This document shows positions 1,937-46,175 of a stretch of DNA of 64,000 nt, piece after piece. The translations under genes and the position numbers were made by a program. Each line of letters opens with the position of its first letter. The first letter of the stretch is position 1. The stretch lies in IMG/VR virus record IMGVR_UViG_3300037475_000071, positions 36,156 to 100,155 of that record. One strand, given 5' to 3'. The stretch is from a virus. The notes beneath the pieces were generated by a model. It had not been told where the DNA came from. It saw only the letters and a program-made list of their open reading frames with translations, and did not search any database.

Positions 1937-2245
1937 TTGTACGAGTTCTTAAAGCCTAGAAACGGCCCAGTAGTTGATGGGATGGAGTCGGAGGAAGTTG
2001 TGTACGCGGAAGACCAGCCTCAGTACATTCCACTGCGTACGCTAGTAAGTTCAGCCCCAGATGGACGTGTGGTATCCCGCTGGACGCCGACGGATGAGCA
2101 GCGAAAGCTAATCGCCGACGGCGCAGACATTTTCTTAGAGTTGCTAACTTTTCACCAACCATTAAACCCCATCCGAGTAGCTGTTTCTGACGGAAAGCTG
2201 GATAACGGGTGGGTACGGGTTTGCTTGCTAGGACGACACGCATAA
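1937..2245 (+). CDS. hypothetical phage protein
   Basis: AGGAGG RBS; YAEDQPQYIPL and SRWTPT motifs typical of a small phage family. Confidence 0.7.
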   Translation: MYEFLKPRNGPVVDGMESEEVVYAEDQPQYIPLRTLVSSAPDGRVVSRWTPTDEQRKLIADGADIFLELLTFHQPLNPIRVAVSDGKLDNGWVRVCLLGRHA

Positions 2246-2932
2246 ATGAGTAAATATGATAATTCAACTTGCAATTGGTGTGGTGCAATTATACCTAAAC
2301 CAAACAAGACGCAGCGGGCAGGATTACACAGGGCAGGCCATGCTTACTGCTCCACTGAATGCTCATCGGCCAACGCTTCTCATATAAGTTCAATAAGGAT
2401 GGCCGAGACTAACCGCAAGCACTGCTCAGCGCGTATGAAACGTAACAATCCTATGAAGCGCGAGGATGTTAGGCAGAAACAGTTAGCTAGTATACTTAGG
2501 GCTGGCGTAAAACCTCCGATACAGGGAGGTAACGGAAGAGGGCCGACCAAATGGGAAGCTATGTTGGCTGCTGCCACGGGTCTAGCCGTTAATGTAGTGG
2601 TTCCGACTAAAGTACCGCGAGGTACGGGATACCCTACGTGTTACAAGATAGACCTCGGCGATGAGTTTTACAAAGTTGGCGTAGAAGTTGACGGCAACTC
2701 ACATTACGGCGTTCGCAAAGTACAAGACAACAAGAAGGATTTGTTTTTACAGGAGCGAGGTTGGACTATTCTTCGCTTCAAGAATAAAGAAGTGGAAAAT
2801 AACCTACGAGCGTGTGTCGATAGCATAAATAGCACACTGGAGAAAAAACGTGAAGCTGAGACCCTATCAGGAATCTGCCTTGGAAGCAATCAAGCTCCAG
2901 TACCAGAATGGAGTCAATCGGCTACTCCTTAA
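2246..2932 (+). CDS. DUF559/Vsr-like endonuclease with N-terminal Zn finger (probable homing endonuclease)
   Basis: CNWC..YCSTEC; IDL...VEVDGNSH...D..KD.FL..RGW.ILRF.N. Confidence 0.8.
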   Translation: MSKYDNSTCNWCGAIIPKPNKTQRAGLHRAGHAYCSTECSSANASHISSIRMAETNRKHCSARMKRNNPMKREDVRQKQLASILRAGVKPPIQGGNGRGPTKWEAMLAAATGLAVNVVVPTKVPRGTGYPTCYKIDLGDEFYKVGVEVDGNSHYGVRKVQDNKKDLFLQERGWTILRFKNKEVENNLRACVDSINSTLEKKREAETLSGICLGSNQAPVPEWSQSATP

Positions 2933-4538
2933 TCTTCCCTGCGGAACCGGAAAAACTTGCTGCTTTAGTATGTTGCCACAACGCATGGAGTTGCCCGGAA
3001 AGTGGCTAATCTTGGTGCATCGCACCGAACTAGCGCAGCAGGCGTTCGACAAAATCAGCAAATGGAATCCCGACCTTAAAGTTGAAATTGAAATGGGTAG
3101 CGACCACGCCTGCGCCTCTTCTGACGTTGTTATAGCTTCCGTTCAGACTCTCGGTATGGAAGGCGGCACGCGGATTAACAAGTGGAATCCAGAAGAGTTT
3201 GCTGGCGTCGTAATAGATGAGTGTCATAGAAGTACGGCTGCTACGTACACCCGCGTGCTTGAGCATTTCGGCCTAGATAAACCAGGTGGTAAGCGATTAT
3301 TGCTGGGAGTAACTGCCACAGTCAATCGTGCAGACGGACAGGGGCTGGATAAGGTCTACGACGCCATTGCTTATGAACTGTCGCTTCTGGACGCTGTAAG
3401 GCAGGGCTGGCTGGTGGATTTAAAGGGTATTCGCGTGGTTACGGGCGTTAGCTTGGATGGAGTCAAAATTACGGCCGGGGACTTTAACCCAAAGCAGCTT
3501 GAGGATGCCATTAATACGCCAGCACGTAATAAAGTAATCGTTCAAGAATGGCTGAAACACGCTGAACGTAGACGTACGGTAGCGTTCACCGTTGACATCC
3601 AGCACGCGAAGGACTTGGCAGCAATGTTCCGTGAGCATGACGTTAAGGCGGAAGCAGTATGGGGAACCGACCCTAACCGTAAAGAAAAATTAGCACAGTA
3701 TGCTGCTGGCCAATTCGAAGTGCTGACCAACAGTTTTTTGTTGGTTGAAGGTTGGGACGACCCAGAGACAGCCTGTGTATTACAGGCAAAGCCCACCAGA
3801 AGCCTAGTAATGTATCAACAGCAGATTGGGCGAGGAGATCGTCTCCAAGCAAGTGTAGACAACCTCCTAGAAGCCAGAAAACTTGGCCAGAAACTGGAGA
3901 AGGAAGATTGCCTGATTATCGACGTAGTGGACAACACGACGAAGCACTCGCTCGTGACGGTTCCCTCGTTGATGGGCCTCAATCCTGACCTAGACCTTAA
4001 AGGCGAGAGCGTTGTTTTCGCCAAGGATAGGGCCGACGCACTACAGGCCGCCAATCCGCTGGCCGACATGTCCAAGGTTACGGACATTGAGCAACTACGT
4101 GGCGACACTATTCCGGTGGATTTGTGGAAGGTAGAGTTCGCGCCGGAGGTACTGAAGGAGACGAGGCTACAGTGGCACAAGACTGGAGAGAGCAGCTACC
4201 TGCTGTCTATGAAATCCGGCCAAGGTGCAGTGGTATGGCAGGACTCGCTGAATAAGTGGCATGTAAAAGCCGTGTATGGGCAGAACAAGTTCGACGAGAC
4301 CTTCGATACCCGCAAAGCTACGTTCGGGTTCGCTGAGAGAATGGCGGGTCTATGCAATGGGGACGACGCCAGATGGTTGACCCGTAATAATTCGTGGGGA
4401 GCCAAGCCAGCAACTAAGAACCAACTGGACTACTTACGTCGTCGTGGCGTGGCCGTCAAGGAAGATATTACTTCTGGACAGGCTAATCAAATTATTAACC
4501 GTTTGCAAGCAATTAACAGCGTAGGAGCAGCGCAATGA
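2850..4538 (+). CDS. SF2 DEAD/DEAH-box helicase
   Basis: LRPYQ, PCGTGKT, DECH, TAT, LVEGWD, QQIGRGDR. Confidence 0.93.
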   Translation: MKLRPYQESALEAIKLQYQNGVNRLLLNLPCGTGKTCCFSMLPQRMELPGKWLILVHRTELAQQAFDKISKWNPDLKVEIEMGSDHACASSDVVIASVQTLGMEGGTRINKWNPEEFAGVVIDECHRSTAATYTRVLEHFGLDKPGGKRLLLGVTATVNRADGQGLDKVYDAIAYELSLLDAVRQGWLVDLKGIRVVTGVSLDGVKITAGDFNPKQLEDAINTPARNKVIVQEWLKHAERRRTVAFTVDIQHAKDLAAMFREHDVKAEAVWGTDPNRKEKLAQYAAGQFEVLTNSFLLVEGWDDPETACVLQAKPTRSLVMYQQQIGRGDRLQASVDNLLEARKLGQKLEKEDCLIIDVVDNTTKHSLVTVPSLMGLNPDLDLKGESVVFAKDRADALQAANPLADMSKVTDIEQLRGDTIPVDLWKVEFAPEVLKETRLQWHKTGESSYLLSMKSGQGAVVWQDSLNKWHVKAVYGQNKFDETFDTRKATFGFAERMAGLCNGDDARWLTRNNSWGAKPATKNQLDYLRRRGVAVKEDITSGQANQIINRLQAINSVGAAQ

Positions 4539-10545: not shown

Positions 10546-10729
10546 GATTCACTTCGCCGTTCGTACGATTAACGGCAAGCTGGTAGCGCGGGAGGGCAAG
10601 TTCGGAACTGGTAAGCGGCTGCATTTCTACTGCGGCTTCTGCAAGGGGTGGTTTGTGTCTCGTCGGCAGCGCAACGACCACGTTAGCGGCTGCGTGGAAT
10701 ACCAGCCACGCCAGAGGAGAACACGTTGA
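10538..10729 (+). CDS. small basic Zn-finger protein
   Basis: MSKIHF...CGFC...H...C. Confidence 0.6.
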   Translation: MSKIHFAVRTINGKLVAREGKFGTGKRLHFYCGFCKGWFVSRRQRNDHVSGCVEYQPRQRRTR

Positions 10730-12570
10730 GCACAAAGAAAGAGAAGCTGAAAGCCTTGGAGAACGCCGCCGAAGCACTGGAGAAGACCCACGGAGAAGGT
10801 TCAATCATGCGAGTTGGTTCGCGCAAGATTGTCCCCATCGACGTTATCCCTACCCAGATATTCGAGCTTGACCACTACGTCATCGGGGCTGGTGGGTTTC
10901 CACGGGGGCGCATCGTGGAGGTGTACGGCCCAGAAGCGTGCTTGGACGGGGATTCGTTCATACAATACAGTATAAGAACCAAGGAAGGACGCCGCCAGAA
11001 TCAAAAGGGGGGAACAATACGGCGGCTGTTCCAACGCTTCAATAGTATTCCCACCAAGGGAAAAGGCTATTACCAGAGAGCTTGCACAAAAGACGCAGTA
11101 TTTTTCGCTACCTCTATAAATGAAGAAGGCAGGGTCTTTCAGAACAGGGTATTGGGTGTATTTTATGCTGGCGACAAGCCTTGTTTTAAGTTAACAACAC
11201 AATCAGGCAGGGCAATATTAGCGAGTGCAGATCACAAATTCTTTGTGGGGAACAAATACGTTGAACTAGGGTCGCTGCAAGTGGGAGACACACTATACAT
11301 ACACAACAACACTCGCTTTAAGTGTGGCGACAATACAGAACGCCCCTATAGAAAAGACTTACTCGTTAAACATCACCCCGTTGCTGGTACCAAAGTAATT
11401 GAAGGTAAGTACACTTACCATCGTATAGCTCAGTCCAGAGCCACAGTTGAAGCAGAAATGAATGGCATGTCCCTAGATGCCTACGTCGCTCTGCTCAATG
11501 CAGGAGACATCGAGGGAATACGGGTGCTCTCCCGTGAAGACCATGTACATCACATTGATGAGAACCCCTCAAATGATGCGTTGTCTAATCTGGTTGTAAT
11601 TATAGGAGAGGAACATAATAGGTTACACGCTACATTAAATCACAACTATTTGCGTTTCACAGCCGTACCCGATTCCGTTGCCTCCGTGGAATATGCGGGC
11701 GTTCGGGACACATATGACATCCGTATGGCTGCCCCCTTTAACAATTACGTAGCTAACGAATTCATAGTTCACAACTCAGGAAAAACCACCATCGCCCTTC
11801 AAGTGGTTGCCAACGTTCAACAGGGCGGAGGCACGGCTGCCTACATCGACGCTGAACACGCTCTCGACCTCAACTACGCACAGTCTCTCGGGGTAGAGAC
11901 CAACGATGTCTTCCTAAGCCAGCCTGATAACGGCGAACAGGCTCTGGAGATCGCAGACGGTCTCATCGAGACAGGAATGGTAGACATTGTTGTAGTTGAC
12001 TCCGTTGCTGCGCTGATTCCAGCGGCGGAATTGAATGGAGAAATGACCGACCAATTCATGGGACTGCAAGCACGTCTCATGGGTAAAGCCATGCGCAAGC
12101 TGGCTGGCAAGGTGCGCAGAACTGGTACCTGTCTCGTGTTCATTAACCAGATACGCGAGAAGATTGGCGTTCAATTTGGCTCACCAGAAACGACACCCGG
12201 TGGACGTGCACTGAAGTTTGCAGCGTCGTTGCGACTGGATGTACGCCGTACTGAGCAAGTGAAAGATGGAGAAGCTATTGTCGGAGCTAAGACCAAGTTC
12301 AAAGCCGCGAAGAACAAAATAGCTGCACCACTAAGGGAGTGCTCGGTTGACCTGCTGTATGGAACTGGGTTCGATAAGGCTGGCAGCCTGGTTGCGGCGG
12401 GGTTGAAGTACGGCGTAGTAGAGAAGTCAGGCTCTTGGTACAACGTATTCGGAGACCGTATCGGACAGGGAGCACTCAATGCAGCGCAGACTGTGCGTAG
12501 TAGTCCGGAGTTGTTCACCAAGATTGCGGCGGCGATTCTAAAGATTAAGGAAGAGGAGACTAAGAAATGA
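10726..12570 (+). CDS. recA: RecA recombinase, intein-containing
   Basis: GGFPRGRIVEVYGPEA/SGKTT, IDAEHALD, VVDSVAAL, GLQARLM, FINQIREKIG, ETTPGGRALKF. Confidence 0.96.
   Translation: MSTKKEKLKALENAAEALEKTHGEGSIMRVGSRKIVPIDVIPTQIFELDHYVIGAGGFPRGRIVEVYGPEACLDGDSFIQYSIRTKEGRRQNQKGGTIRRLFQRFNSIPTKGKGYYQRACTKDAVFFATSINEEGRVFQNRVLGVFYAGDKPCFKLTTQSGRAILASADHKFFVGNKYVELGSLQVGDTLYIHNNTRFKCGDNTERPYRKDLLVKHHPVAGTKVIEGKYTYHRIAQSRATVEAEMNGMSLDAYVALLNAGDIEGIRVLSREDHVHHIDENPSNDALSNLVVIIGEEHNRLHATLNHNYLRFTAVPDSVASVEYAGVRDTYDIRMAAPFNNYVANEFIVHNSGKTTIALQVVANVQQGGGTAAYIDAEHALDLNYAQSLGVETNDVFLSQPDNGEQALEIADGLIETGMVDIVVVDSVAALIPAAELNGEMTDQFMGLQARLMGKAMRKLAGKVRRTGTCLVFINQIREKIGVQFGSPETTPGGRALKFAASLRLDVRRTEQVKDGEAIVGAKTKFKAAKNKIAAPLRECSVDLLYGTGFDKAGSLVAAGLKYGVVEKSGSWYNVFGDRIGQGALNAAQTVRSSPELFTKIAAAILKIKEEETKK
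10939..11775 (+). mobile_element. 279 aa intein with HNH homing endonuclease, inserted in the RecA Walker A
   Basis: Starts CLDGDS, block B ASADHKF, HVHHIDENPSND..NL...HNRLH, ends TYDI...HN followed by Ser(+1) of SGKTT. Confidence 0.93.
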
Positions 12571-17664: not shown

Positions 17665-18049
17665 AAACAAATGGTTCATTCAGGAATGGGGAACGCTTCC
17701 CAACGAGACCTTGGTTATCGTCGGCATGACGCAGAAGCAAATCGTTGCGCGGATGAAGCGCAGCAAGTTCCACAAGGATGTAGTAGATGCGTTCAAGCGT
17801 AGTGAACCACTGGAAGACGCCAGCGCATGGGTGTGGTTGAGGCAGGGCAGAACTGTGTTGTGGTTTCCAGACTGGAAGGACGATTGGAGTCACTACAACA
17901 CCCTGCTCCACGAGACCAACCATCTGGTCTACCACATCATCCGCGACAAGGGCATGACGGACGAGATAGAAGCGCAGGCATACCAGCACGAGTACCTGTT
18001 CGACAACATCCGGCGCAGACTGTGCGCCAAACCAAAGAGGAAAAAGTAA
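17648..18049 (+). CDS. HExxH-motif protein (putative metallopeptidase)
   Basis: LLHETNH...EAQAY. Confidence 0.7.
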   Translation: MTCRSKNKWFIQEWGTLPNETLVIVGMTQKQIVARMKRSKFHKDVVDAFKRSEPLEDASAWVWLRQGRTVLWFPDWKDDWSHYNTLLHETNHLVYHIIRDKGMTDEIEAQAYQHEYLFDNIRRRLCAKPKRKK

Positions 18050-18552
18050 TGGTCACAGTAATCTTCAGCACTGAGAAAGATTTAGTCAGCGGCACCATCC
18101 GCGCTTTTACTTGGTCGTCAGTGTCGCACGTCGATATTCGCCTTCCGGCCGGATTGAAGTACGGCAATGGCCGCGTCACCGAGAATGGAGACCTCGTTGG
18201 AGCGCGGTTCGCCCAAGACAAAGGGCTCAACAAGGGCGTCAGCGTCCGGCCTTGGAACTACCACAAGACCTCGAAGGAAATCTGGACGGTTAGCGACACC
18301 ACGCCAGAGACCGACGCCAAGATTTACGAAGCGGCTCTGTCGCAGGTGGGGAAGCCATACGACTTGAGCGGCATTGCAAACTTCGCTTTACACCGCGATT
18401 GGCGCGAGGAAGATAGCTTTTTTTGCAGCGAGCTGGTTGCGTGGGCGTTTGAACAGGCTGGAGCACCTCTGCTTAACGGCAACTGCAATCGCATTACACC
18501 GGGAATGCTGCTGATGTCTCCCCTCTTAAAGGTAGTCGCAGAAAAGCGGTAG
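18049..18552 (+). CDS. permuted papain-like NlpC/P60 enzyme (YiiX/YebB-like)
   Basis: TWSSVSHV, A.SQVGKPYD, FCSELVAWAF, ITPG.L; His precedes Cys; start moved to ATG 18049. Confidence 0.85.
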   Translation: MVTVIFSTEKDLVSGTIRAFTWSSVSHVDIRLPAGLKYGNGRVTENGDLVGARFAQDKGLNKGVSVRPWNYHKTSKEIWTVSDTTPETDAKIYEAALSQVGKPYDLSGIANFALHRDWREEDSFFCSELVAWAFEQAGAPLLNGNCNRITPGMLLMSPLLKVVAEKR

Positions 18553-22106: not shown

Positions 22107-22335
22107 GAAGAGAGCAAAGCGCAAGGCGGCCGCAGCAAAGCCAATGAGGTTTAGATTTGTGAAAGATAATGATGGGCATACCTATCTTATAGAAGCAGAC
22201 CAGATAGGGCAGTTCGAAACATGGTTGGAAGCTGGGCCATACTGGGACTGGAATGGATACGAGGGAGAAGACTTCAACATCTACCGAGTAGACGGCACAG
22301 GGCAATACACCTTCACCGACCCACAGCAAGACTAG
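22096..22335 (+). CDS. hypothetical protein
   Basis: DNDGHTYLI motif. Confidence 0.65.
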   Translation: MSPKKRAKRKAAAAKPMRFRFVKDNDGHTYLIEADQIGQFETWLEAGPYWDWNGYEGEDFNIYRVDGTGQYTFTDPQQD

Positions 22336-22354
22336 CTCCTTTACAAACACAAAT

Positions 22355-22406
22355 AGACCCAAAGCCGCCTACCTGTACCTTGGTAGATGACTTTGGGTCT
22401 TTTTTA
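22355..22406 (+). terminator. intrinsic terminator
   Basis: AGACCCAAAG...CTTTGGGTCT followed by T-tract. Confidence 0.75.
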
Positions 22407-22435
22407 TTGTATGCTATAAAGCCTTGGAGGTAGCA

Positions 22436-22648
22436 ATGAACCTTGAACCAATCAAGCAACAACTGAAGGCGGAATTAGAGCGGATACAAACTGCACTGAC
22501 TGCGCTCGATGAACTAGACGGCGCAAAGCCAGCACAAGAGTACCGTTCAGTCAAAACAAACAAACGCCACATGAGCGAAGCAGCGCGTAAGCGCATTTCT
22601 ATGGCACAGAAAGCACGCTGGGCCAAACAACGTAAGGAAGCCGCATAA
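22436..22648 (+). CDS. small coiled-coil + basic tail protein (putative nucleoid/DNA-binding)
   Basis: GGAGG RBS; LKAELERIQTALTAL...KRHMSEAARKRISMAQKARWAK. Confidence 0.8.
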   Translation: MNLEPIKQQLKAELERIQTALTALDELDGAKPAQEYRSVKTNKRHMSEAARKRISMAQKARWAKQRKEAA

Positions 22649-22654
22649 CGAATC

Positions 22655-22686
22655 GGGCCGCGGAAGGAGACAGCAACCGCGGCCCA
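22655..22686. terminator. GC-rich hairpin at convergence of the two arms
   Basis: GGGCCGCGG...CCGCGGCCC. Confidence 0.6.
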
Positions 22687-22703
22687 ACCTCGTTCCCTCA
22701 ACT

Positions 22704-23528
22704 CTAAAAAATCTTCTGCACCGGAATCGGATACGGCCCTGTCAGCGTGTTTATCTTGTTGGTAGCACTCTGGCTTGTAGGGGTCGCGGGGTACACGCCG
22801 TTCACCGCATCGTATTCAAACCAAGCAATCGGCCCATAGCCACGCCGGAACTGCTTGGTCTCTTTGGCTGTGTATTGAACCACACCATTAACCAGCGCCC
22901 CACCGCGCTCGTAATCCGCAAACCAGTCCTCACCTGCCGGAAGGTCGCCAATCGCAGCCGAGTTCAGGTACGGCCCACGAACCGTGCAACGGCACAGCTT
23001 ATTGGAGTATCTAACCGCGTCTGGAACCCCACCCGTTTCGTAGGTAAGGTAGTCGGTTTCTGGAGGGGCTAAAGTAAACGACCACGAACCAGGTTCTGGC
23101 AATAATGTCACTGTCGGCATCACTGGATCAGGGGCGGCCATATACGCCACAGCCACGCCGGGGATGTCCGACGACGCACTGCCGGCCGTGTAGACCGGAG
23201 GTGGAACTACCAACGTTGAAGGAGTGTAGTCTAAATAACGTGGGAAACGACGTGCGCCGTTTTGGAAGAACATCTTCCCTGTTGACGGGTCTGTCCATAC
23301 CTTTTCCGTCAGGAGCTGGCGAATCCACGGGCCAGAGGCTCTGCACCAGTCCCACGGATACGTAGTGTTGTTCGTGGTGTTTATCCCTTTGGAGAACACA
23401 ACATCAATCGAACCATCTGCTGCGGCTGGGAAAGCGTAGACGTAGCTGGGCGTGCTGCCTGACAAGTATTTACCAGCCATCAGCGTCGGCGACGGCATCA
23501 TAATGTCGTTCAAAAAATCTATCCGCAT
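22704..23528 (-). CDS. hypothetical protein
   Basis: 274 aa, GGAG RBS. Confidence 0.75.
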   Translation of the reverse strand: MRIDFLNDIMMPSPTLMAGKYLSGSTPSYVYAFPAAADGSIDVVFSKGINTTNNTTYPWDWCRASGPWIRQLLTEKVWTDPSTGKMFFQNGARRFPRYLDYTPSTLVVPPPVYTAGSASSDIPGVAVAYMAAPDPVMPTVTLLPEPGSWSFTLAPPETDYLTYETGGVPDAVRYSNKLCRCTVRGPYLNSAAIGDLPAGEDWFADYERGGALVNGVVQYTAKETKQFRRGYGPIAWFEYDAVNGVYPATPTSQSATNKINTLTGPYPIPVQKIF

Positions 23529-27121: not shown

Positions 27122-30100
27122 TTACGGGGTTCTTGTTCCTACGAGTACAGCAGAAACTGCGGCATTAACCGTGGTTACATCAGCACCTAAGTCAGTTCCG
27201 TCACTAGCTTGGTCGGCCTGTCCAGCAGCAAACACGCTATTAGTAGCGCATCCCCTAACTGTAGTGCACAACCTGTAGTCGCCACCGCTAGCATTGTTGT
27301 AGTTAACAAACCCTACCGCCGTATGCGATAACTGCCAGATTGGTGAACTCGAAAACACGGTAGGACTAGCCGTAGAGTCCATTAAGTTGTTGTGATCGAA
27401 TACGTACGGAGAGACAAGAACAAATCCGGGAGGAGTTGCCACGGGAGCATATGCTCCTCCGTTGCTTGATAGCTCCCACCCCGTACCAGACACGTTGCAG
27501 TAGAAGGTGTTGCCTGATGCCGGATGTTTGCAACTAGCTAGCGCGACTGCATTCCAGCCTGTGCCTTGGAAAGCCAGCGCCTCGGTATCTGTTGCACCTG
27601 TGCCCTGCGCTTGGTCGGCATCATTGTTCTCCCCGTTCGCATTGATAAACGTAGAAGACCCTGCTGCTGCAATGATGTTGTCCTGAATCTTGAAGTTTAT
27701 AAGCTGGTACTGAGCGATATAGTTATTCAGCCAGAACGGATTGACAGCATCGCCTATCAGAGTGTTGTGGGTAACAAAGATGTTGGCGGCCAGCGGCGTA
27801 GTCGGCGATGTCCAGCTTAGGACATTTATACTGGCCGTTCCACCCAACTGGAACTGCGCTGTAAGTTTTGCAAACCCATTACTCCATCGGTTAAAGCTGC
27901 AATCATCACACACGTTGTTAGTAAACAACACATTGTGAGTGCCTTTAGCGACGTTCAAAGGAACAATAGCAAATCCGGCACCAAAATGCCTGAACATGTT
28001 ATAACGAAGAGTAAAGTCTTGATTATAAGAAGGCCCATACCCAACGGTCACACCATTTCCGTCGGTGACCTGACTGGCTTGGTTAATCGCTTGTACAAGA
28101 CCTGCACTTCCCGTCTGTCCGCCGCCGTTACCCTGCGATCCCCACGCTAACTCAATGAGGTTTTTCTCCAAGAGCAGACGGTTACCGCATTTAGCTTCCC
28201 AGCCATTCTTACTGGTGAACGGCTTGAAATCATAAGCAACAATCGGGGCTGAGGTGCTAACATTGATAGCACTGGAGCCCGTTGTAGTTCCGTCCGTCGC
28301 AAACACAGTGTGTGTGCCGACGCCGGTACCTGAACAATAGATAGCCTCGCCAGCCGCAACGCCTGTAGGGGTAGTGACTGTACCGATAGTGCTATTGCCG
28401 CTGCCATTTCCGGGTGCATCTACGTACCACGTAATACTGCTTGGGGTAAAGTTAGCAAACTCAAATATCGTGTAGCAGAATTGCCGGATGTTCCCCCGAG
28501 CATCTGAATACGATGGCTGTATTTGTAAATCAGATGCCTTGGGACTAACCGCAATCACGTGTGTGGGGCTTGAGCTAACAACCGTCACGGTAGAAGATGC
28601 AGACAGTGTTCGGTTATTCCCTAAATTACCTGCCCTAGAATCGCTAGTTAGAGCGTTCGCTGTAACCACATGGTCACCTAACGTCGTTGCCACGGTGCAC
28701 ACAATGAGTGGAGCCCCTGAGCCAGTACAAACCGTATAGGTGTAGGTTATTTGGTTTGCACTAGCGTAAGGCGTAGTGCCCACATTGTGCTCTCCGTTTT
28801 TAGTTATCACCCCTAGACTAGAACTACCGCCCACCATGCAGGTAAGACTTGTAAATACACAGGTACTTCCGTCAATCGAGAATGATCCCCCTCCAATGGT
28901 GTTGGCATTGCTCATGCGGTTTAAGCCGCCAAAAGAGTCATTGCCCCAATACAATTGCAACTGAAGAGACTGTCCGGGAGTCAACTGCACAGCCGTCGGC
29001 GTTATCGTTAATTCTTGGTCATTAGCTGGCGGGTACGTAGCACCTTCTATTGTTTCTGATTCAAGCAGCGTCTGGCCGTTCTGCGTATTCCAGAGCGGGT
29101 TCTTAAAGAAATGATTTTGCGCCCACCACACATCGTGGGGAACTCCGTCGAACCCTGTTACTGGATTTAATGCTTCGGTGAAAGCACCGCAGAACAGAGA
29201 ACCCATCGTAGAAGACACGGTAAAATTGTTTACAAACTTACCGAAGCCGACGTTGGTATAACCATGACCGCCTCCCCAGAAATAAAACTGTGCGTCTCCT
29301 GAGCCGCCTGCCGCAGTTAAACCAATATCATCCCCGTAGCTATCAAGCAGCGCGACATGTCGTATGCCCGCAAAGTTAAAAGCTCTGCTGGTTTGTCGCT
29401 GAGCATCGCCATGCACGTACACTTGGTCGAAAATAATGTCATTTGGCTGCACATTCATACACGCTGTGGGAGTAACCATAAGCGCGGTGTCCCCTACCGT
29501 CTGGTTGGGATACGGAGCCAATGGATTAGTGGCGCAGTCCTGACCCACAGCAGCAGGTGAGTAGGTCAAATCAACCACCACCGTCAACAAATCGGTCGTC
29601 TGGTCTCGGGTTAATTCAAGCCCAATAAATCGCCAGAATGAAGGCGCAGTTATGCCTGTGCCGCTGCTTGGTACCTTGAGAGAAATAGTAGGAGTGCCTA
29701 ACGATGCTTTGCCAATTAGCACGGGCATGTGCCGTGTTGTGGCGTTAGGCGAGGTGTTCCACGTCGGGTATGGATACTCCGTCAACACCGAATGAGGCAG
29801 GCCAGCAAAAGATGGATCAACCCTTTGTCCCTCGGCCGGAAACGTGGTATCGGTAAAGTCTCGCGTCACCCAAATCCAATTAGAATTGGTGCATACTACG
29901 TCAGGAATAGTGAGATTAGTTTGGCTATATACAGTGTTCTGCATCACCAAAATGTTGCCGCAGACAAGACTGTTGATTGCAGTTTGTAATTGGGCCGTAG
30001 TAAACGAAGCGGAACAGCCCCCAGACAACGCAGCTACGTTAGCCAACGTACCGACACAGACGTAAGGCCCACTGGCAGGAGTCGCAGACCGTGCGGTATT

Positions 30101-42535: not shown

Positions 42536-45517
42536 TTAGGTGCCTGAAATAAATACAGCGTAATCTGAGCCATTAACCGTGCTCGCGGCTGTGTAAGAAA
42601 CCGATACACGTTGCCAGTCCGTTGTCAGCACCACGCTTTGGCTAGCGTACACAGTGTTCGTTGACGAACTGCGTATGCCCACCACTACGGTCTTACCTAT
42701 GTCGGTGAGTGTATCCGCCTTGACATCCACGGAGTAGGTCAACAGCGTACCCACGACTTCCGGAACCGCTGTCGTCTGGAAACACTTGCCTGACGGCACT
42801 ATCGTCACCTTACTGATTAGCGACTTGGTTCCGTCGGGGTTTATATCCATCTTGTTGACTGTCGGCGTTATGCCTCCAGTAAGCAGTTGCCACGCGGAAG
42901 CAGTGAAGTCTTCCGAAAACAGCACTTGGTTTCTACCATCCTGCGCTTTGACCCACACGGCTTGGCCGCGTAATGTGCGAGGAACTTGGAAGGCTCTACC
43001 AAGCGAGCGCATCACAAGGTTCTTAGCGTCGTCACATCCCCATGACTCGTTGGTGTAGCGGATTTCAAATCCACCACCACCGGGCGGGTCTTGGTTGGTG
43101 GTAAGGTAGTAGTTGCCACTGTCCCACGAGAGCAACGAAGGCCCGATTACGTCATCTGCAAACGTAGTGCCTACGGTACTGATGCTGATTGCATTAGGAA
43201 TTTCGGCATCGTCTTGCGGCTGCCACGGAGTATTAGGCTTGGTGAACTTAGCGAGGAACTTCTGTTCCATGCTCTGCCGGCCAAACGTAATCTGTAGGTC
43301 AAACACTTCCTTGGGGATCAAGGAACTAAACGTAGTTGCCACCTGTGTAATAGACTCGGCTGTGAGCGTTGGCGGAAACTGCGTAGGCATGTTCTGAAAC
43401 TTCAGAACCGTACCCGACAGAATTTCCCCAGTAGCCTCGAACAGATTAGTCAGGGAATATGTCCCGTCCCAGTGCTGTCTGCCTTGGTCTCCCACTATTG
43501 CTTGGGCGGCCACCTCGCACTCGCCAGATGTTCTCGGCAAAGGCGACAGGTTGGAAGTCACTGCCGAACGCAGGCCGTTATCCCCCCACGCCGCCGACTC
43601 CGTAGCAACAGAGCCCTTATCCTGAACACGTCCAATAGACGCTCCGGCTCGTCGGTAGGTAAACCAAATAAGGTCACCCACATTCGGCATAGTCTGCGTT
43701 TGATTCACCGTGTCAACGAAAAACTCCAGAGCAGCGTTGCCGGGGTTGTACTGAATTCTGCCCAGCAGAGACGACCGCGTAGTAGCGCCTTGGTTAGAAT
43801 CCACCACAGTGGCTACAGGAGTGTTGCCGTCATAAGAATCAATCTCATTAGGCCCAATCAGCTTGGTACTAAACACCGTGCTGCCCTTTGGCCTAACCTT
43901 CAAGCCAGCGTGCAGCGGGGTTGATATGGTCAGCCCTGTAAAGCTACAATGCAGATCATTCAAAACCACAGGGATGTAAAAAGCGAAACCCAAATCTGCA
44001 CTTATAGGCACAGTGTTGGTGCATTCCATGAATGCTGTCGAACCGTTAGCCTGTGTAATAACCGTGCCCGTCTCTGGGTCGATGGCTATAATCTTTGTCT
44101 CTGCCGTCATCGTGTCGGGCAGCATTGGCTGGCCAACAGTTTGCACGGCACCGTTCGCGTCAAGGTACGAATAGTTCTGGGTAAAACGCTTGCTGCGTTG
44201 GAATGTATAATTGGTACGAACCACGTAGCGAAGATTGTAGTTACCCAGCAACACGCCTTGAGTGGTGTCCACAAGCCCGTTAACAATCGGGTTAACCAGC
44301 ATGGCCGCTACGCCATTTTGTATAGTCGTAGTCTTAGTGAGCTTCAGTCCGTAAAGAACTTTGGCCAGAGTATTCGTCGGCTCCCCAGTCCAAAGACCAC
44401 AAATCACTCCGTCTGAGGATTGAACAAAGTCATACTCCCCGTGGGTGATTCGCATACTGCCTTCCAGCGGAAACTGGAACTGGGTCTGCATCCACACGTC
44501 GTACTGGCCGTTGTTGTTGCCCCCAAGGGCATTACAAAATCCGTTGGAGACCTGGATGAACTGAGTGGGAGTGTCGAACACATCCCACTTCTGCTGGGTG
44601 TCTATCGAAGAGCCAGAGAAGGTCTCGTCGAATAGTAAATTTGTATCAGCTCCGTAGCACGAAGCAATAAGCGGGAATTTACCGTTCCAGCCATCGCCAA
44701 CGAAATATTCGCTCATGTAGTCCTGCGGCTCAATGTCACCGAGAACAACAGCGTCGTTTACGATAGGGTCGTTGCTAGGAGTAAGGCTAAGGTTCGCAGG
44801 CGTAAAATCCACAACTTCGCCGTCGATGATGAGCGGAGCGATGCGGCTGTCGATTGGCTCGAAATACAGCTTGCCCTGCCGTGCCGCAAAACGGTAATTG
44901 GCCGCCTTGCAAAAAGCGTCAACCACGTCCTTCCACTTTTGCGTGGGGTCAACGATGTACCGCGCCATCATCAGGCCGTCCTGAATGTTGGAAACATCGA
45001 AGTTCCACTCAGGTGCCATCACCCCAGCCAAGGTCTTGAGTATCTGGCCTTGGGTAATGTTCATGAACGGAGACAGCAGAGGCAGCGGGTTGAGATTGAG
45101 AAGATAATCTTCCCCAGATGCCTCGTACACATAACCGAAGACAGGCTGGCCGCTTCTCGAACCTAAATAAGTAAGGTTTGGATCGCTGGTAATGAAACCC
45201 GTGAACCAAGGGCCGTATGAAGCTGTATCTAGCTGAATGTACGCCCCGCGCTGTAGCTTTACGAACGCAGAGTCTGCGGGGAATACTGAGAAATCCAACA
45301 CATCGGGTGTATTGAGTACGTCCTTCTTTATCGGCGCATTAAAAAGATAAGGCAAATAATCATAGCTAGAACCGGCCAAGGTGCTCCACAACCTAGCAAC
45401 CATCGGCGATACAGCAGGCTGGGTATTAGGCCATGCAGTATTGGGCCAGAACATGCCTCCCGCCGCTCTAGGGGCAGGAGACGGAGTAGGAGAAACATCT
45501 TGCCCTAAAATACTCAT
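42536..45517 (-). CDS. large tail tip/hub protein
   Basis: 993 aa downstream of tape measure; FVGDG, D..S...ES..WG.G; C-terminal partial beta-sandwich. Confidence 0.7.
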   Translation of the reverse strand: MSILGQDVSPTPSPAPRAAGGMFWPNTAWPNTQPAVSPMVARLWSTLAGSSYDYLPYLFNAPIKKDVLNTPDVLDFSVFPADSAFVKLQRGAYIQLDTASYGPWFTGFITSDPNLTYLGSRSGQPVFGYVYEASGEDYLLNLNPLPLLSPFMNITQGQILKTLAGVMAPEWNFDVSNIQDGLMMARYIVDPTQKWKDVVDAFCKAANYRFAARQGKLYFEPIDSRIAPLIIDGEVVDFTPANLSLTPSNDPIVNDAVVLGDIEPQDYMSEYFVGDGWNGKFPLIASCYGADTNLLFDETFSGSSIDTQQKWDVFDTPTQFIQVSNGFCNALGGNNNGQYDVWMQTQFQFPLEGSMRITHGEYDFVQSSDGVICGLWTGEPTNTLAKVLYGLKLTKTTTIQNGVAAMLVNPIVNGLVDTTQGVLLGNYNLRYVVRTNYTFQRSKRFTQNYSYLDANGAVQTVGQPMLPDTMTAETKIIAIDPETGTVITQANGSTAFMECTNTVPISADLGFAFYIPVVLNDLHCSFTGLTISTPLHAGLKVRPKGSTVFSTKLIGPNEIDSYDGNTPVATVVDSNQGATTRSSLLGRIQYNPGNAALEFFVDTVNQTQTMPNVGDLIWFTYRRAGASIGRVQDKGSVATESAAWGDNGLRSAVTSNLSPLPRTSGECEVAAQAIVGDQGRQHWDGTYSLTNLFEATGEILSGTVLKFQNMPTQFPPTLTAESITQVATTFSSLIPKEVFDLQITFGRQSMEQKFLAKFTKPNTPWQPQDDAEIPNAISISTVGTTFADDVIGPSLLSWDSGNYYLTTNQDPPGGGGFEIRYTNESWGCDDAKNLVMRSLGRAFQVPRTLRGQAVWVKAQDGRNQVLFSEDFTASAWQLLTGGITPTVNKMDINPDGTKSLISKVTIVPSGKCFQTTAVPEVVGTLLTYSVDVKADTLTDIGKTVVVGIRSSSTNTVYASQSVVLTTDWQRVSVSYTAASTVNGSDYAVFISGT

Positions 45518-45771
45518 TCCATGTGCCCCTGTAAGCGATTAGTTACCAAGTCAATTAACGACTGCACAGTGGTGAGAGCGGCGACATCTTTACCGCCGAG
45601 ACTAGCTTTCGTTCCCAGTGCGTCTTCTAAATCAACGCTGACAAGTAGTAAGTCCAAAGAGTCTAGTTCCAGAGATTCAAACGTATCCCACGGATGAACA
45701 CAAGTAGGGTCTACCTCTTGTACACGAGCTATTGATGCGGTTACTACTTCTTCTACGCTTGGGGAGCTCAT
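45514..45771 (-). CDS. acyl carrier protein
   Basis: Small acidic protein, DTFESLELDSLDLLLVSVDLEDALG...LTTVQSLIDLV; phosphopantetheine Ser codon at 45658-60; GAGG RBS favours ATG 45771. Confidence 0.85.
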   Translation of the reverse strand: MSSPSVEEVVTASIARVQEVDPTCVHPWDTFESLELDSLDLLLVSVDLEDALGTKASLGGKDVAALTTVQSLIDLVTNRLQGHME

Positions 45772-45779
45772 GATTTTCC

Positions 45780-46175
45780 TCACTCATTTCCGGGATAGTA
45801 AGCATTCAATAAATCTGATACTCGACGTTTGCCACCCAGTGCATCTATTAGCTTCAGGCGTTTATTAGTATTGCCTTTGCTTCTAATCAAGAGAAGGGTA
45901 AGGTAATCAAACACCTGCTCAGATAGCTCAACATTGGCAAAGCTAGCGCAGTCCAGCGTCATTGTGAATCCAAGCATCTCTTCGATATTAGTAATGTCAA
46001 ACTTGGAATCGGTGAGGCAGCAGTTTATGAGAGTTGCGCCACTACACTTGGTAATGACGCACTCCCTAAACAGTGCATCCCTGTATATGCGGGGTTCGAG
46101 CTTCACATTATTTTCGCGGATGTGAATCTCAGTCCACGAACGCAATGAGGGTCTTCCGTTGGCTAATACAGGCAT
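45780..46175 (-). CDS. hypothetical protein with pentapeptide-like segment
   Basis: RDALFRECVI..SGATLINCCLTDSKF. Confidence 0.65.
   Translation of the reverse strand: MPVLANGRPSLRSWTEIHIRENNVKLEPRIYRDALFRECVITKCSGATLINCCLTDSKFDITNIEEMLGFTMTLDCASFANVELSEQVFDYLTLLLIRSKGNTNKRLKLIDALGGKRRVSDLLNAYYPGNE

Follow-up and report, generated by a model that had tools for sequence, protein, structure and literature searches.

The 64,000-nucleotide stretch analysed here (the window) comprises bases 36156–100155 of a 100,155-bp IMG/VR record (IMGVR_UViG_3300037475_000071) that is rated complete by CheckV and has a G+C content of 50.5%. Within the tail module of this uncultured soil phage lies a gene for a stand-alone acyl carrier protein (ACP) of 85 amino acids (aa), and the local gene order is that of the tape measure gene, a 131-aa gene, the ACP gene and a gene for a 993-aa tail-tip protein (Table 1). 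This layout had been given correctly by an earlier reading made without database searches (the sequence-only reading), which also placed the ACP gene at 45514–45771 and left its strand unstated; the open reading frame (ORF) is borne out and lies on the minus strand, with its ATG at 45771 and its stop codon at 45514–45516. The gene has the orientation of the tail genes and is closely coupled to the genes on either side. It is separated from the 131-aa gene by a gap of 8 nucleotides, a GAGG ribosome-binding site located 6 nucleotides upstream of its ATG overlaps the TGA stop of that gene, and its own stop codon shares an ATGA overlap with the start codon of the tail-tip gene. A scan with the sigma-70 consensus, which is perhaps unsuited to the presumed Acidobacteriota host, shows no promoter-like site beside the ACP gene on its strand; terminator-like sites are likewise missing there, and the counts of both kinds of site in the region fall within the range given by shuffled sequence.

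The gene encodes a true ACP, as shown by the fold of its product, an invariant attachment serine and strong purifying selection. The protein matches the Pfam PP-binding family (PF00550) with 28.5 bits against a gathering score of 20.8 (E = 1.9e-6), and residues 18–81 match phrog_5934 (‘acyl carrier protein’; E = 3.1e-4, 21.8 bits), the PHROGs having no curated cut-off. The sequence-only reading had recognised a clear ACP with a DSL site, in agreement with the Pfam match and with the motif L-D-S38-L. When 1.8 billion representative proteins were searched exhaustively with HMMER, only 12 homologs scored E<1e-3, and in an alignment of 11 small homologs among these Ser38 and Leu39 are invariant (11/11) and Asp37 is present in 10/11. 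The twelfth relative, added later, is encoded by a 94-kb IMG/VR genome (L006) and keeps both the attachment serine and the DSL site (GVDSL), so that the serine, which the sequence-only reading had taken as diagnostic, does not vary. A profile of the homolog alignment matches solved ACPs in the PDB, including mitochondrial ACP, Aquifex ACP, AcpM and E. coli AcpP (E = 1.8e-20 to 1e-15). The ACP four-helix bundle expected by the same reading is predicted by AlphaFold2 (predicted local distance difference test [pLDDT] 86.8; predicted template modelling score 0.73), and helix II of the model begins with Ser38; the top Foldseek matches of the model in the PDB are all ACPs (template modelling [TM] scores 0.68–0.82; AcpP and AcpM 0.7–0.8). 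The protein is very acidic, with an isoelectric point (pI) of 4.1 and 15 Asp/Glu residues against four Lys/Arg.

A further copy is present on a 2.6-kb metagenome contig (L004) at 68% aa identity, and comparison with it gives a ratio of nonsynonymous to synonymous substitution rates (dN/dS) of ~0.08, a value that is approximate because dS is saturated. The shortness of the gene and the small number of homologs could be taken as signs of a chance ORF or a decaying pseudogene with a superficial likeness to ACPs, but the score above the Pfam cut-off, the ACP fold, the invariant serine, the low dN/dS and a good ribosome-binding site refute this; moreover, the distant L006 genome keeps an ACP at 37% identity in the same slot, and the probability of a spurious gene is negligible.

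The window protein shares with the ACPs of type II fatty acid synthesis (AcpP, AcpM) a four-helix fold, D-S-L at the start of helix II, an acidic end of helix II and a ‘TVQ..ID’ helix IV, with 24–30% identity in structural alignments. It differs from AcpP in being virus-encoded, in having no fab genes nearby and in its score to the housekeeping AcpP equivalog TIGR00517, which is 22.3 bits against a cut-off of 70.45; none of the other ACP equivalogs comes near its cut-off either, and by these comparisons the window ACP is not a copy of housekeeping AcpP. Nor does the model of the D-alanyl carrier protein DltC (NF003464) match it, and no AMP-binding or MBOAT genes were found in Pfam scans of ~75 proteins of the window phage, which represent nearly every ORF of at least 130 aa in its genome. 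Relative to five more distant aligned homologs, the loop joining helices II and III has two extra residues in the window ACP, in its homologs P0003–P0006 and P0009 and in the L006 copy, with a consensus in these nearest relatives of roughly G-x-x-A-(S/Y)-(L/M)-(G/S)-(G/S)-x-D. The ACP belongs to a small divergent subfamily that is so far found only in viral records and unplaced metagenome contigs. A search of cultured phages with the DNA of the region and the ACP protein (tblastn against 50,697 phage records) gave no match, and a search of reference genomes with the ACP alone found only an unrelated Streptomyces ACP (35% identity).

The ACP gene occupies the same position in L004 and L006. The L004 contig carries the four genes in the window order, and its neighbouring genes are 78, 81 and 87% identical to those of the window – 78% being the value for the C-terminal part of the tape measure protein – with the ACP at 68%. 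In L006 the order is tape measure, a gp14-like gene (48% identity to the 131-aa gene), the ACP (37% identity over 52 residues; PP-binding 36.1 bits) and a gene for an 1822-aa tail-tip protein (43%). Among cultured phages, a homolog of the 993-aa protein is encoded only by the nearest cultured relative of the window phage, Tunturiibacter phage Tunturi 4 (L005), an 88-kb siphovirus of Acidobacteriota from Arctic tundra soil with a prolate head and a 204-nm tail (PMC11924767). In this phage gp13 (tape measure) is followed by gp14 (135 aa) and gp15 with a gap of 27 bp between the latter two, and there is no PP-binding match in the whole Tunturi 4 record. An IMG/VR profile scan with the tail-tip N-terminus yielded seven further loci, all of which have the gp14-like gene and none of which has the ACP; in five of the seven the gp14-like gene ends ~30 bp before the tail-tip gene. 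No ACP is present at the slot in six relatives with homologous flanks (Tunturi 4, L007, L008, L009, L012 and L013), and the slot is filled in L011 by a 271-aa gene and in L014 by a 684-aa and a 119-aa gene, which are unrelated to the ACP and have no Pfam match above the gathering score. Synteny conservation, which the sequence-only reading had proposed as a check, holds in part: the four-gene order is kept in L004 and L006, and there is no ACP at the slot in eight other related loci. The ACP is not present in all relatives with a homologous tail module, as a core tail component should be, and because six relatives have no ACP and two have unrelated genes in its place, it is, judged from these genomes, accessory cargo in a variable slot and one of several alternative occupants. 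The IMG/VR relatives were found only by alignment-based scans; when the database was searched with one protein at a time (the ACP, P0005, P0009, the 131-aa protein or the N-terminus of the tail-tip protein), no match was obtained, and the tail-tip profile found no prophage relatives in reference genomes.

We note that the tail-tip protein has a 45-residue proline-rich N-terminal extension in the window and in L004. It was considered as an ACP-linked feature and rejected: the ACP-bearing L006 lacks the extension, which is therefore not linked to the ACP.

The three ACP-bearing loci group together in some of the comparisons. A tree of the tail-tip gene leaves it undecided whether the ACP-bearing phages are sisters, and in a tree of the gp14-like gene the three ACP loci fall together with three unplaced metagenomic proteins into a single clade (support 96/98), which a long branch separates from all loci without an ACP. 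Genome-wide, L006 is nearer to the window phage than is Tunturi 4, with identities of 59% versus 49% for the portal and 52% versus 46% for TerL, and the major head protein is 70% identical to that of L006 and has no match in Tunturi 4. The divergence of the ACP between the window and L006 (37% identity) is of the same order as that of its neighbours (43–48%). The simplest reading of these relationships is a single acquisition of the ACP in the ancestor of the clade, which would have been followed by vertical retention under selection.

The three flanking genes are identified by their Tunturi 4 counterparts (Table 1), of which gp13 is annotated as ‘tail length tape measure protein’ and gp15 as ‘virion structural protein’. 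The 131-aa protein is modelled by AlphaFold2 (pLDDT 86.7) as a short pentapeptide-repeat-like beta-solenoid followed by three helices; it has a weak Pfam match to Pentapeptide_4, and its Foldseek matches are all weak and all to pentapeptide-repeat folds. The gp14-like protein is kept in 11/11 related loci, and Cys39, Cys52 and Cys76 of its short beta-solenoid are invariant and His18 nearly so; these cysteines and His18 could form a metal site. The 993-aa protein is 43% identical to the 1822-aa L006 protein and is the counterpart of the N-terminal part of gp15. We note that the gene represented by gp15 and the 1822-aa homolog is split in the window phage, the 993-aa gene corresponding to the N-terminal part and a 319-aa gene to a later part, with the gene for a 706-aa Beta_helix tailspike located between them.

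Table 1. Positions of the genes and sites discussed in the text
Feature	Position	Numbering	Strand	Basis
Stand-alone ACP, 85 aa, Ser38 in LDSL, pI 4.1	45514..45771	window	minus	Pfam, profiles, model
GAGG ribosome-binding site of the ACP gene	45778..45781	window	minus	read from sequence
Tape measure protein, 1306 aa	46187..50107	window	minus	36% identity over 351 aa to Tunturi 4 gp13
gp14-like core tail-module gene, 131 aa	45780..46175	window	minus	43% identity to Tunturi 4 gp14
Large tail-tip protein (‘hub’ in the sequence-only reading), 993 aa	42536..45517	window	minus	40% identity over 86% of length to Tunturi 4 gp15
Beta_helix tailspike, 706 aa	40399..42519	window	minus	
Later part of gp15 homolog, 319 aa	39420..40379	window	minus	38% identity over 277 aa to Tunturi 4 gp15
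Tail protein, 534 aa	37809..39413	window	minus	
Intein-interrupted RecA homolog	10726..12570	window	plus	Pfam RecA (E = 4e-107, two stretches) and Intein_splicing
Peptidase_C92 protein	17827..18552	window		
GNAT acetyltransferase	2193..2645	genome		Acetyltransf_1
Large terminase	2652..4147	genome		alignment to L006
Pentapeptide-repeat protein with DUF5758	22271..23083	genome	plus	Pentapeptide, E = 1e-52
Tyrosine integrase	28387..29460	genome	plus	
Slot occupant in L011, 271 aa	3156..3971	L011		
Slot occupants in L014, 684 and 119 aa	1440..3867	L014		

Enzymes that might act on the ACP were sought in the Pfam scans of the window phage, and the L006 genome was covered by a search for phosphopantetheinyl transferase (PPTase; PF01648) and by a BLAST comparison. 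There is no PF01648 match in either of these ACP-bearing genomes, and the Pfam scans of the window phage contain no match to fatty-acid, polyketide, non-ribosomal, adenylating, MBOAT or ACP-type acyltransferase families. The ACP gene is not embedded among fab genes, and no fatty-acid synthesis gene is present among the scanned proteins of the 100-kb genome; the earlier statement that the window has no fatty-acid, polyketide synthase or PPTase gene stands, and extends to the whole genome. No acyltransferase common to the window phage and L006 was seen in the BLAST comparison. Because no PPTase, no fatty-acid or polyketide gene and no shared acyltransferase was seen, it appears that the ACP must rely on host enzymes, and as far as these sequence searches go it has no specific partner.

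Three individual candidates were considered as partners and rejected. The only GNAT in the window-phage genome is an ordinary Acetyltransf_1 protein whose gene adjoins the terminase gene, with no homolog in L006 or Tunturi 4. A 202-aa protein is the best conserved of the genes common only to the two ACP-bearing genomes (71% identity to L006) but resembles a solved phage ‘structural protein’. The 131-aa neighbour was examined as a possible LpxA-like acyl-ACP acyltransferase, but it is also present in relatives without the ACP, and the only fold matches, which are weak, are to pentapeptide repeats. A fourth candidate, a Peptidase_C92 protein, lies in an early or middle gene block and has no counterpart in L006.

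Phage-encoded ACPs are already known. Those of PHROG 5934, which include Salmonella phage ViI/Sajous1 gp186, Alteromonas phage R22Y gp30 and proteins of cyanophages P-HM1 and P-HM2, resemble the window ACP in being small, acidic, stand-alone PP-binding proteins of tailed phages, usually without a full lipid pathway. The ACP gp186 gave one peptide in virion mass spectrometry of Vi01-like phages (PMC10892097), a stand-alone ACP is annotated in R22Y (PMC11705849), and P-HM1/2 encode an ACP together with its synthase (PMC3037559); no ACP synthase accompanies the window ACP. An ‘acyl carrier protein’ is also listed among the moron or auxiliary metabolic genes of Acidobacteriota-linked viral genomes (PMC11924767). 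Proteins with an ACP fold are present in Achromobacter phage Motura, Serratia phage BF and Caulobacter phage phiCbK, and BFVD contains them from at least a dozen phage groups. The window ACP has weak sequence similarity to the known phage ACPs, and it sits inside a tail operon in which it is translationally coupled. Although phage ACPs occur in many unrelated phages and are routinely classed as auxiliary metabolic genes, in the literature found they are annotated or discussed as putative, with no functional test and no demonstrated function reported there. The window ACP also resembles the moron or cargo genes in the tail operons of temperate siphoviruses, in that it is patchily distributed among relatives, occupies a variable slot and belongs to a phage with an integrase, but unlike a classical moron it has no promoter or terminator of its own in the sigma-70 consensus scan and is translationally coupled on both sides.

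The reading that we favour, at slightly better than even confidence, is that this genuine stand-alone ACP is an accessory, host-dependent carrier encoded in a variable slot of the tail operon. It would be transcribed and translated with the tail genes late in infection, its conversion to the holo form would fall to a host AcpS-type enzyme, and any loading would presumably be the work of host enzymes. The ACP would then act on an ACP-dependent process of the host – acyl chains might be diverted, for instance, or ACP-binding enzymes kept occupied – and would not be a building block of the tail. Several points weigh against this. The tight translational coupling to the tail-tip gene without a promoter of its own is atypical for a moron, and such coupling could be explained as well by a part played in assembling or modifying the tail tip. 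A novel acyltransferase could also be hidden among the many tail-module proteins in which no domain is recognised. The base of the comparison is also narrow, with three ACP-bearing loci (the window, L004 and L006). The sequence-only reading was right that an ACP without partner enzymes lies in the tail module, but none of the three roles that it offered – acyl donor, structural tail subunit or decoy – is demonstrated.

Of these roles, that of a decoy or inhibitor overlaps in part with the reading of an accessory, host-dependent carrier. Here bulk ACP, in apo or holo form, would late in infection sequester host proteins that bind ACP (for instance AcpS, glycerol-phosphate acyltransferase, SpoT-type stringent-response enzymes or SMC complexes), and membrane synthesis or signalling would stop as a result. 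Apo-ACP is toxic in E. coli. A lone ACP with no PPTase or recognisable partner in either ACP-bearing genome would suit this role, as would its divergence well away from housekeeping AcpP and the retained acidic end of helix II (where the position matching E. coli Glu41 is variable in an alignment by eye), but not every contact between an ACP and another protein requires the serine that is invariant here, and we consider a decoy rather unlikely. A different possibility is that the ACP serves as acyl donor for the lipidation of a tail protein – the tail-tip, tape measure or beta-solenoid protein – with a chain drawn from host fatty-acid synthesis. HlyC acylates HlyA using acyl-ACP, and by analogy with this toxin activation a lipidated tail tip would help to engage or cross the host membrane. 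The parallel is conceptual only: there the ACP supplies the acyl chain that arms a membrane-active protein, and no HlyC-type or other ACP-dependent acyltransferase was found in the window-phage scans. The location of the gene between the tape measure and tail-tip genes with translational coupling to the latter, the retention of the slot across deep divergence, the long branch that parts the ACP loci from the others in the gp14-like gene tree, and the invariant serine, which indicates that the prosthetic group matters, all speak for a donor. However, no acyltransferase is conserved with the ACP, the sole GNAT has no counterpart in the other ACP-bearing genome, relatives with homologous tails have no ACP, and the beta-solenoid neighbour is present in all of these and has weak fold matches to pentapeptide repeats rather than to LpxA-like proteins. 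We regard the donor role proposed by the sequence-only reading as unlikely.

A more specific form of acylation would have holo-ACP give a fatty acyl group, or the phosphopantetheine arm itself, to the tail-tip protein, the cysteine-rich beta-solenoid or the tape measure protein, and this we hold to be a shade less likely again. The ACP would here take part in a virion-directed acylation or thiol transfer carried out by a host acyltransferase or by an unrecognised one of the phage. If virion acylation proved true, the ACP clade would have a lipid-modified tail tip for membrane penetration. The ACP could instead be a structural or assembly subunit of the tail tip, acting as an accessory subunit or chaperone on the tail-tip or beta-solenoid protein. 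ACP is a fixed subunit of mitochondrial complex I, MmpL5, EmbAB and MukBEF, and some of these unrelated complexes, in which ACPs are well documented, are among the Foldseek matches; co-translation with the tail-tip gene and the conserved slot are in keeping with such a role. Against it, six relatives with homologous tail-tip and beta-solenoid proteins have no ACP, among them Tunturi 4 with its normal siphovirus tails, and in two others unrelated genes fill the slot. The ACP is moreover less conserved than its neighbours, both in L004 (68% versus 78–87%) and in L006 (37% versus 43–48%). Since homologous tails exist without an ACP, the structural role, another suggestion of the sequence-only reading, is the most weakened of the rivals, and we consider it distinctly improbable.

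On present evidence the window ACP is a modest addition to a known and unexplained class of phage genes and not a new mechanism. Three things set it apart: its slot next to the tail-tip gene, on the side of the tape measure gene, is fixed, no partner is visible, and phages with and without the gene offer a natural comparison. A lone ACP has persisted through long divergence in one clade of soil siphoviruses, whose sister phages have the same tail genes but no ACP. Because Tunturi 4 is a culturable sister phage, the system could show whether phage ACPs serve a virion function or host takeover.

Similarity to Tunturi 4, from which alone the host is predicted, suggests that the window phage is a siphovirus related to phages of Acidobacteriota. 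The late operon is on the minus strand and also encodes the major head protein, a head-tail adaptor, the Beta_helix tailspike, proteins bearing PKD and Ig domains and a trypsin-like protease; the 534-aa tail protein has no Pfam Hint or intein match at E<=0.01. Elsewhere the genome encodes a DNA polymerase A, an integrase, a helicase-primase, RecA, a ribonucleotide reductase and other proteins of nucleotide metabolism. The tyrosine integrase gene is common to the window phage and the L006 genome and is not present in Tunturi 4, and the ACP-bearing clade is therefore probably temperate.

Other features of the genome lie outside the tail module. Alignment of the large terminase gene with L006 runs in two frames, residues 1–62 in frame -3 and residues 63–462 in frame -2, which suggests a frameshift, a small intervening sequence or a sequencing error. 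The GNAT acetyltransferase gene and a 469-aa ORF are located directly downstream of the terminase gene, and both are unique to the window phage. A second and canonical pentapeptide-repeat protein, fused to DUF5758, is encoded in the early region. Finally, the RecA homolog is interrupted by an intein, with the Pfam RecA match falling in two stretches and an Intein_splicing match in addition.

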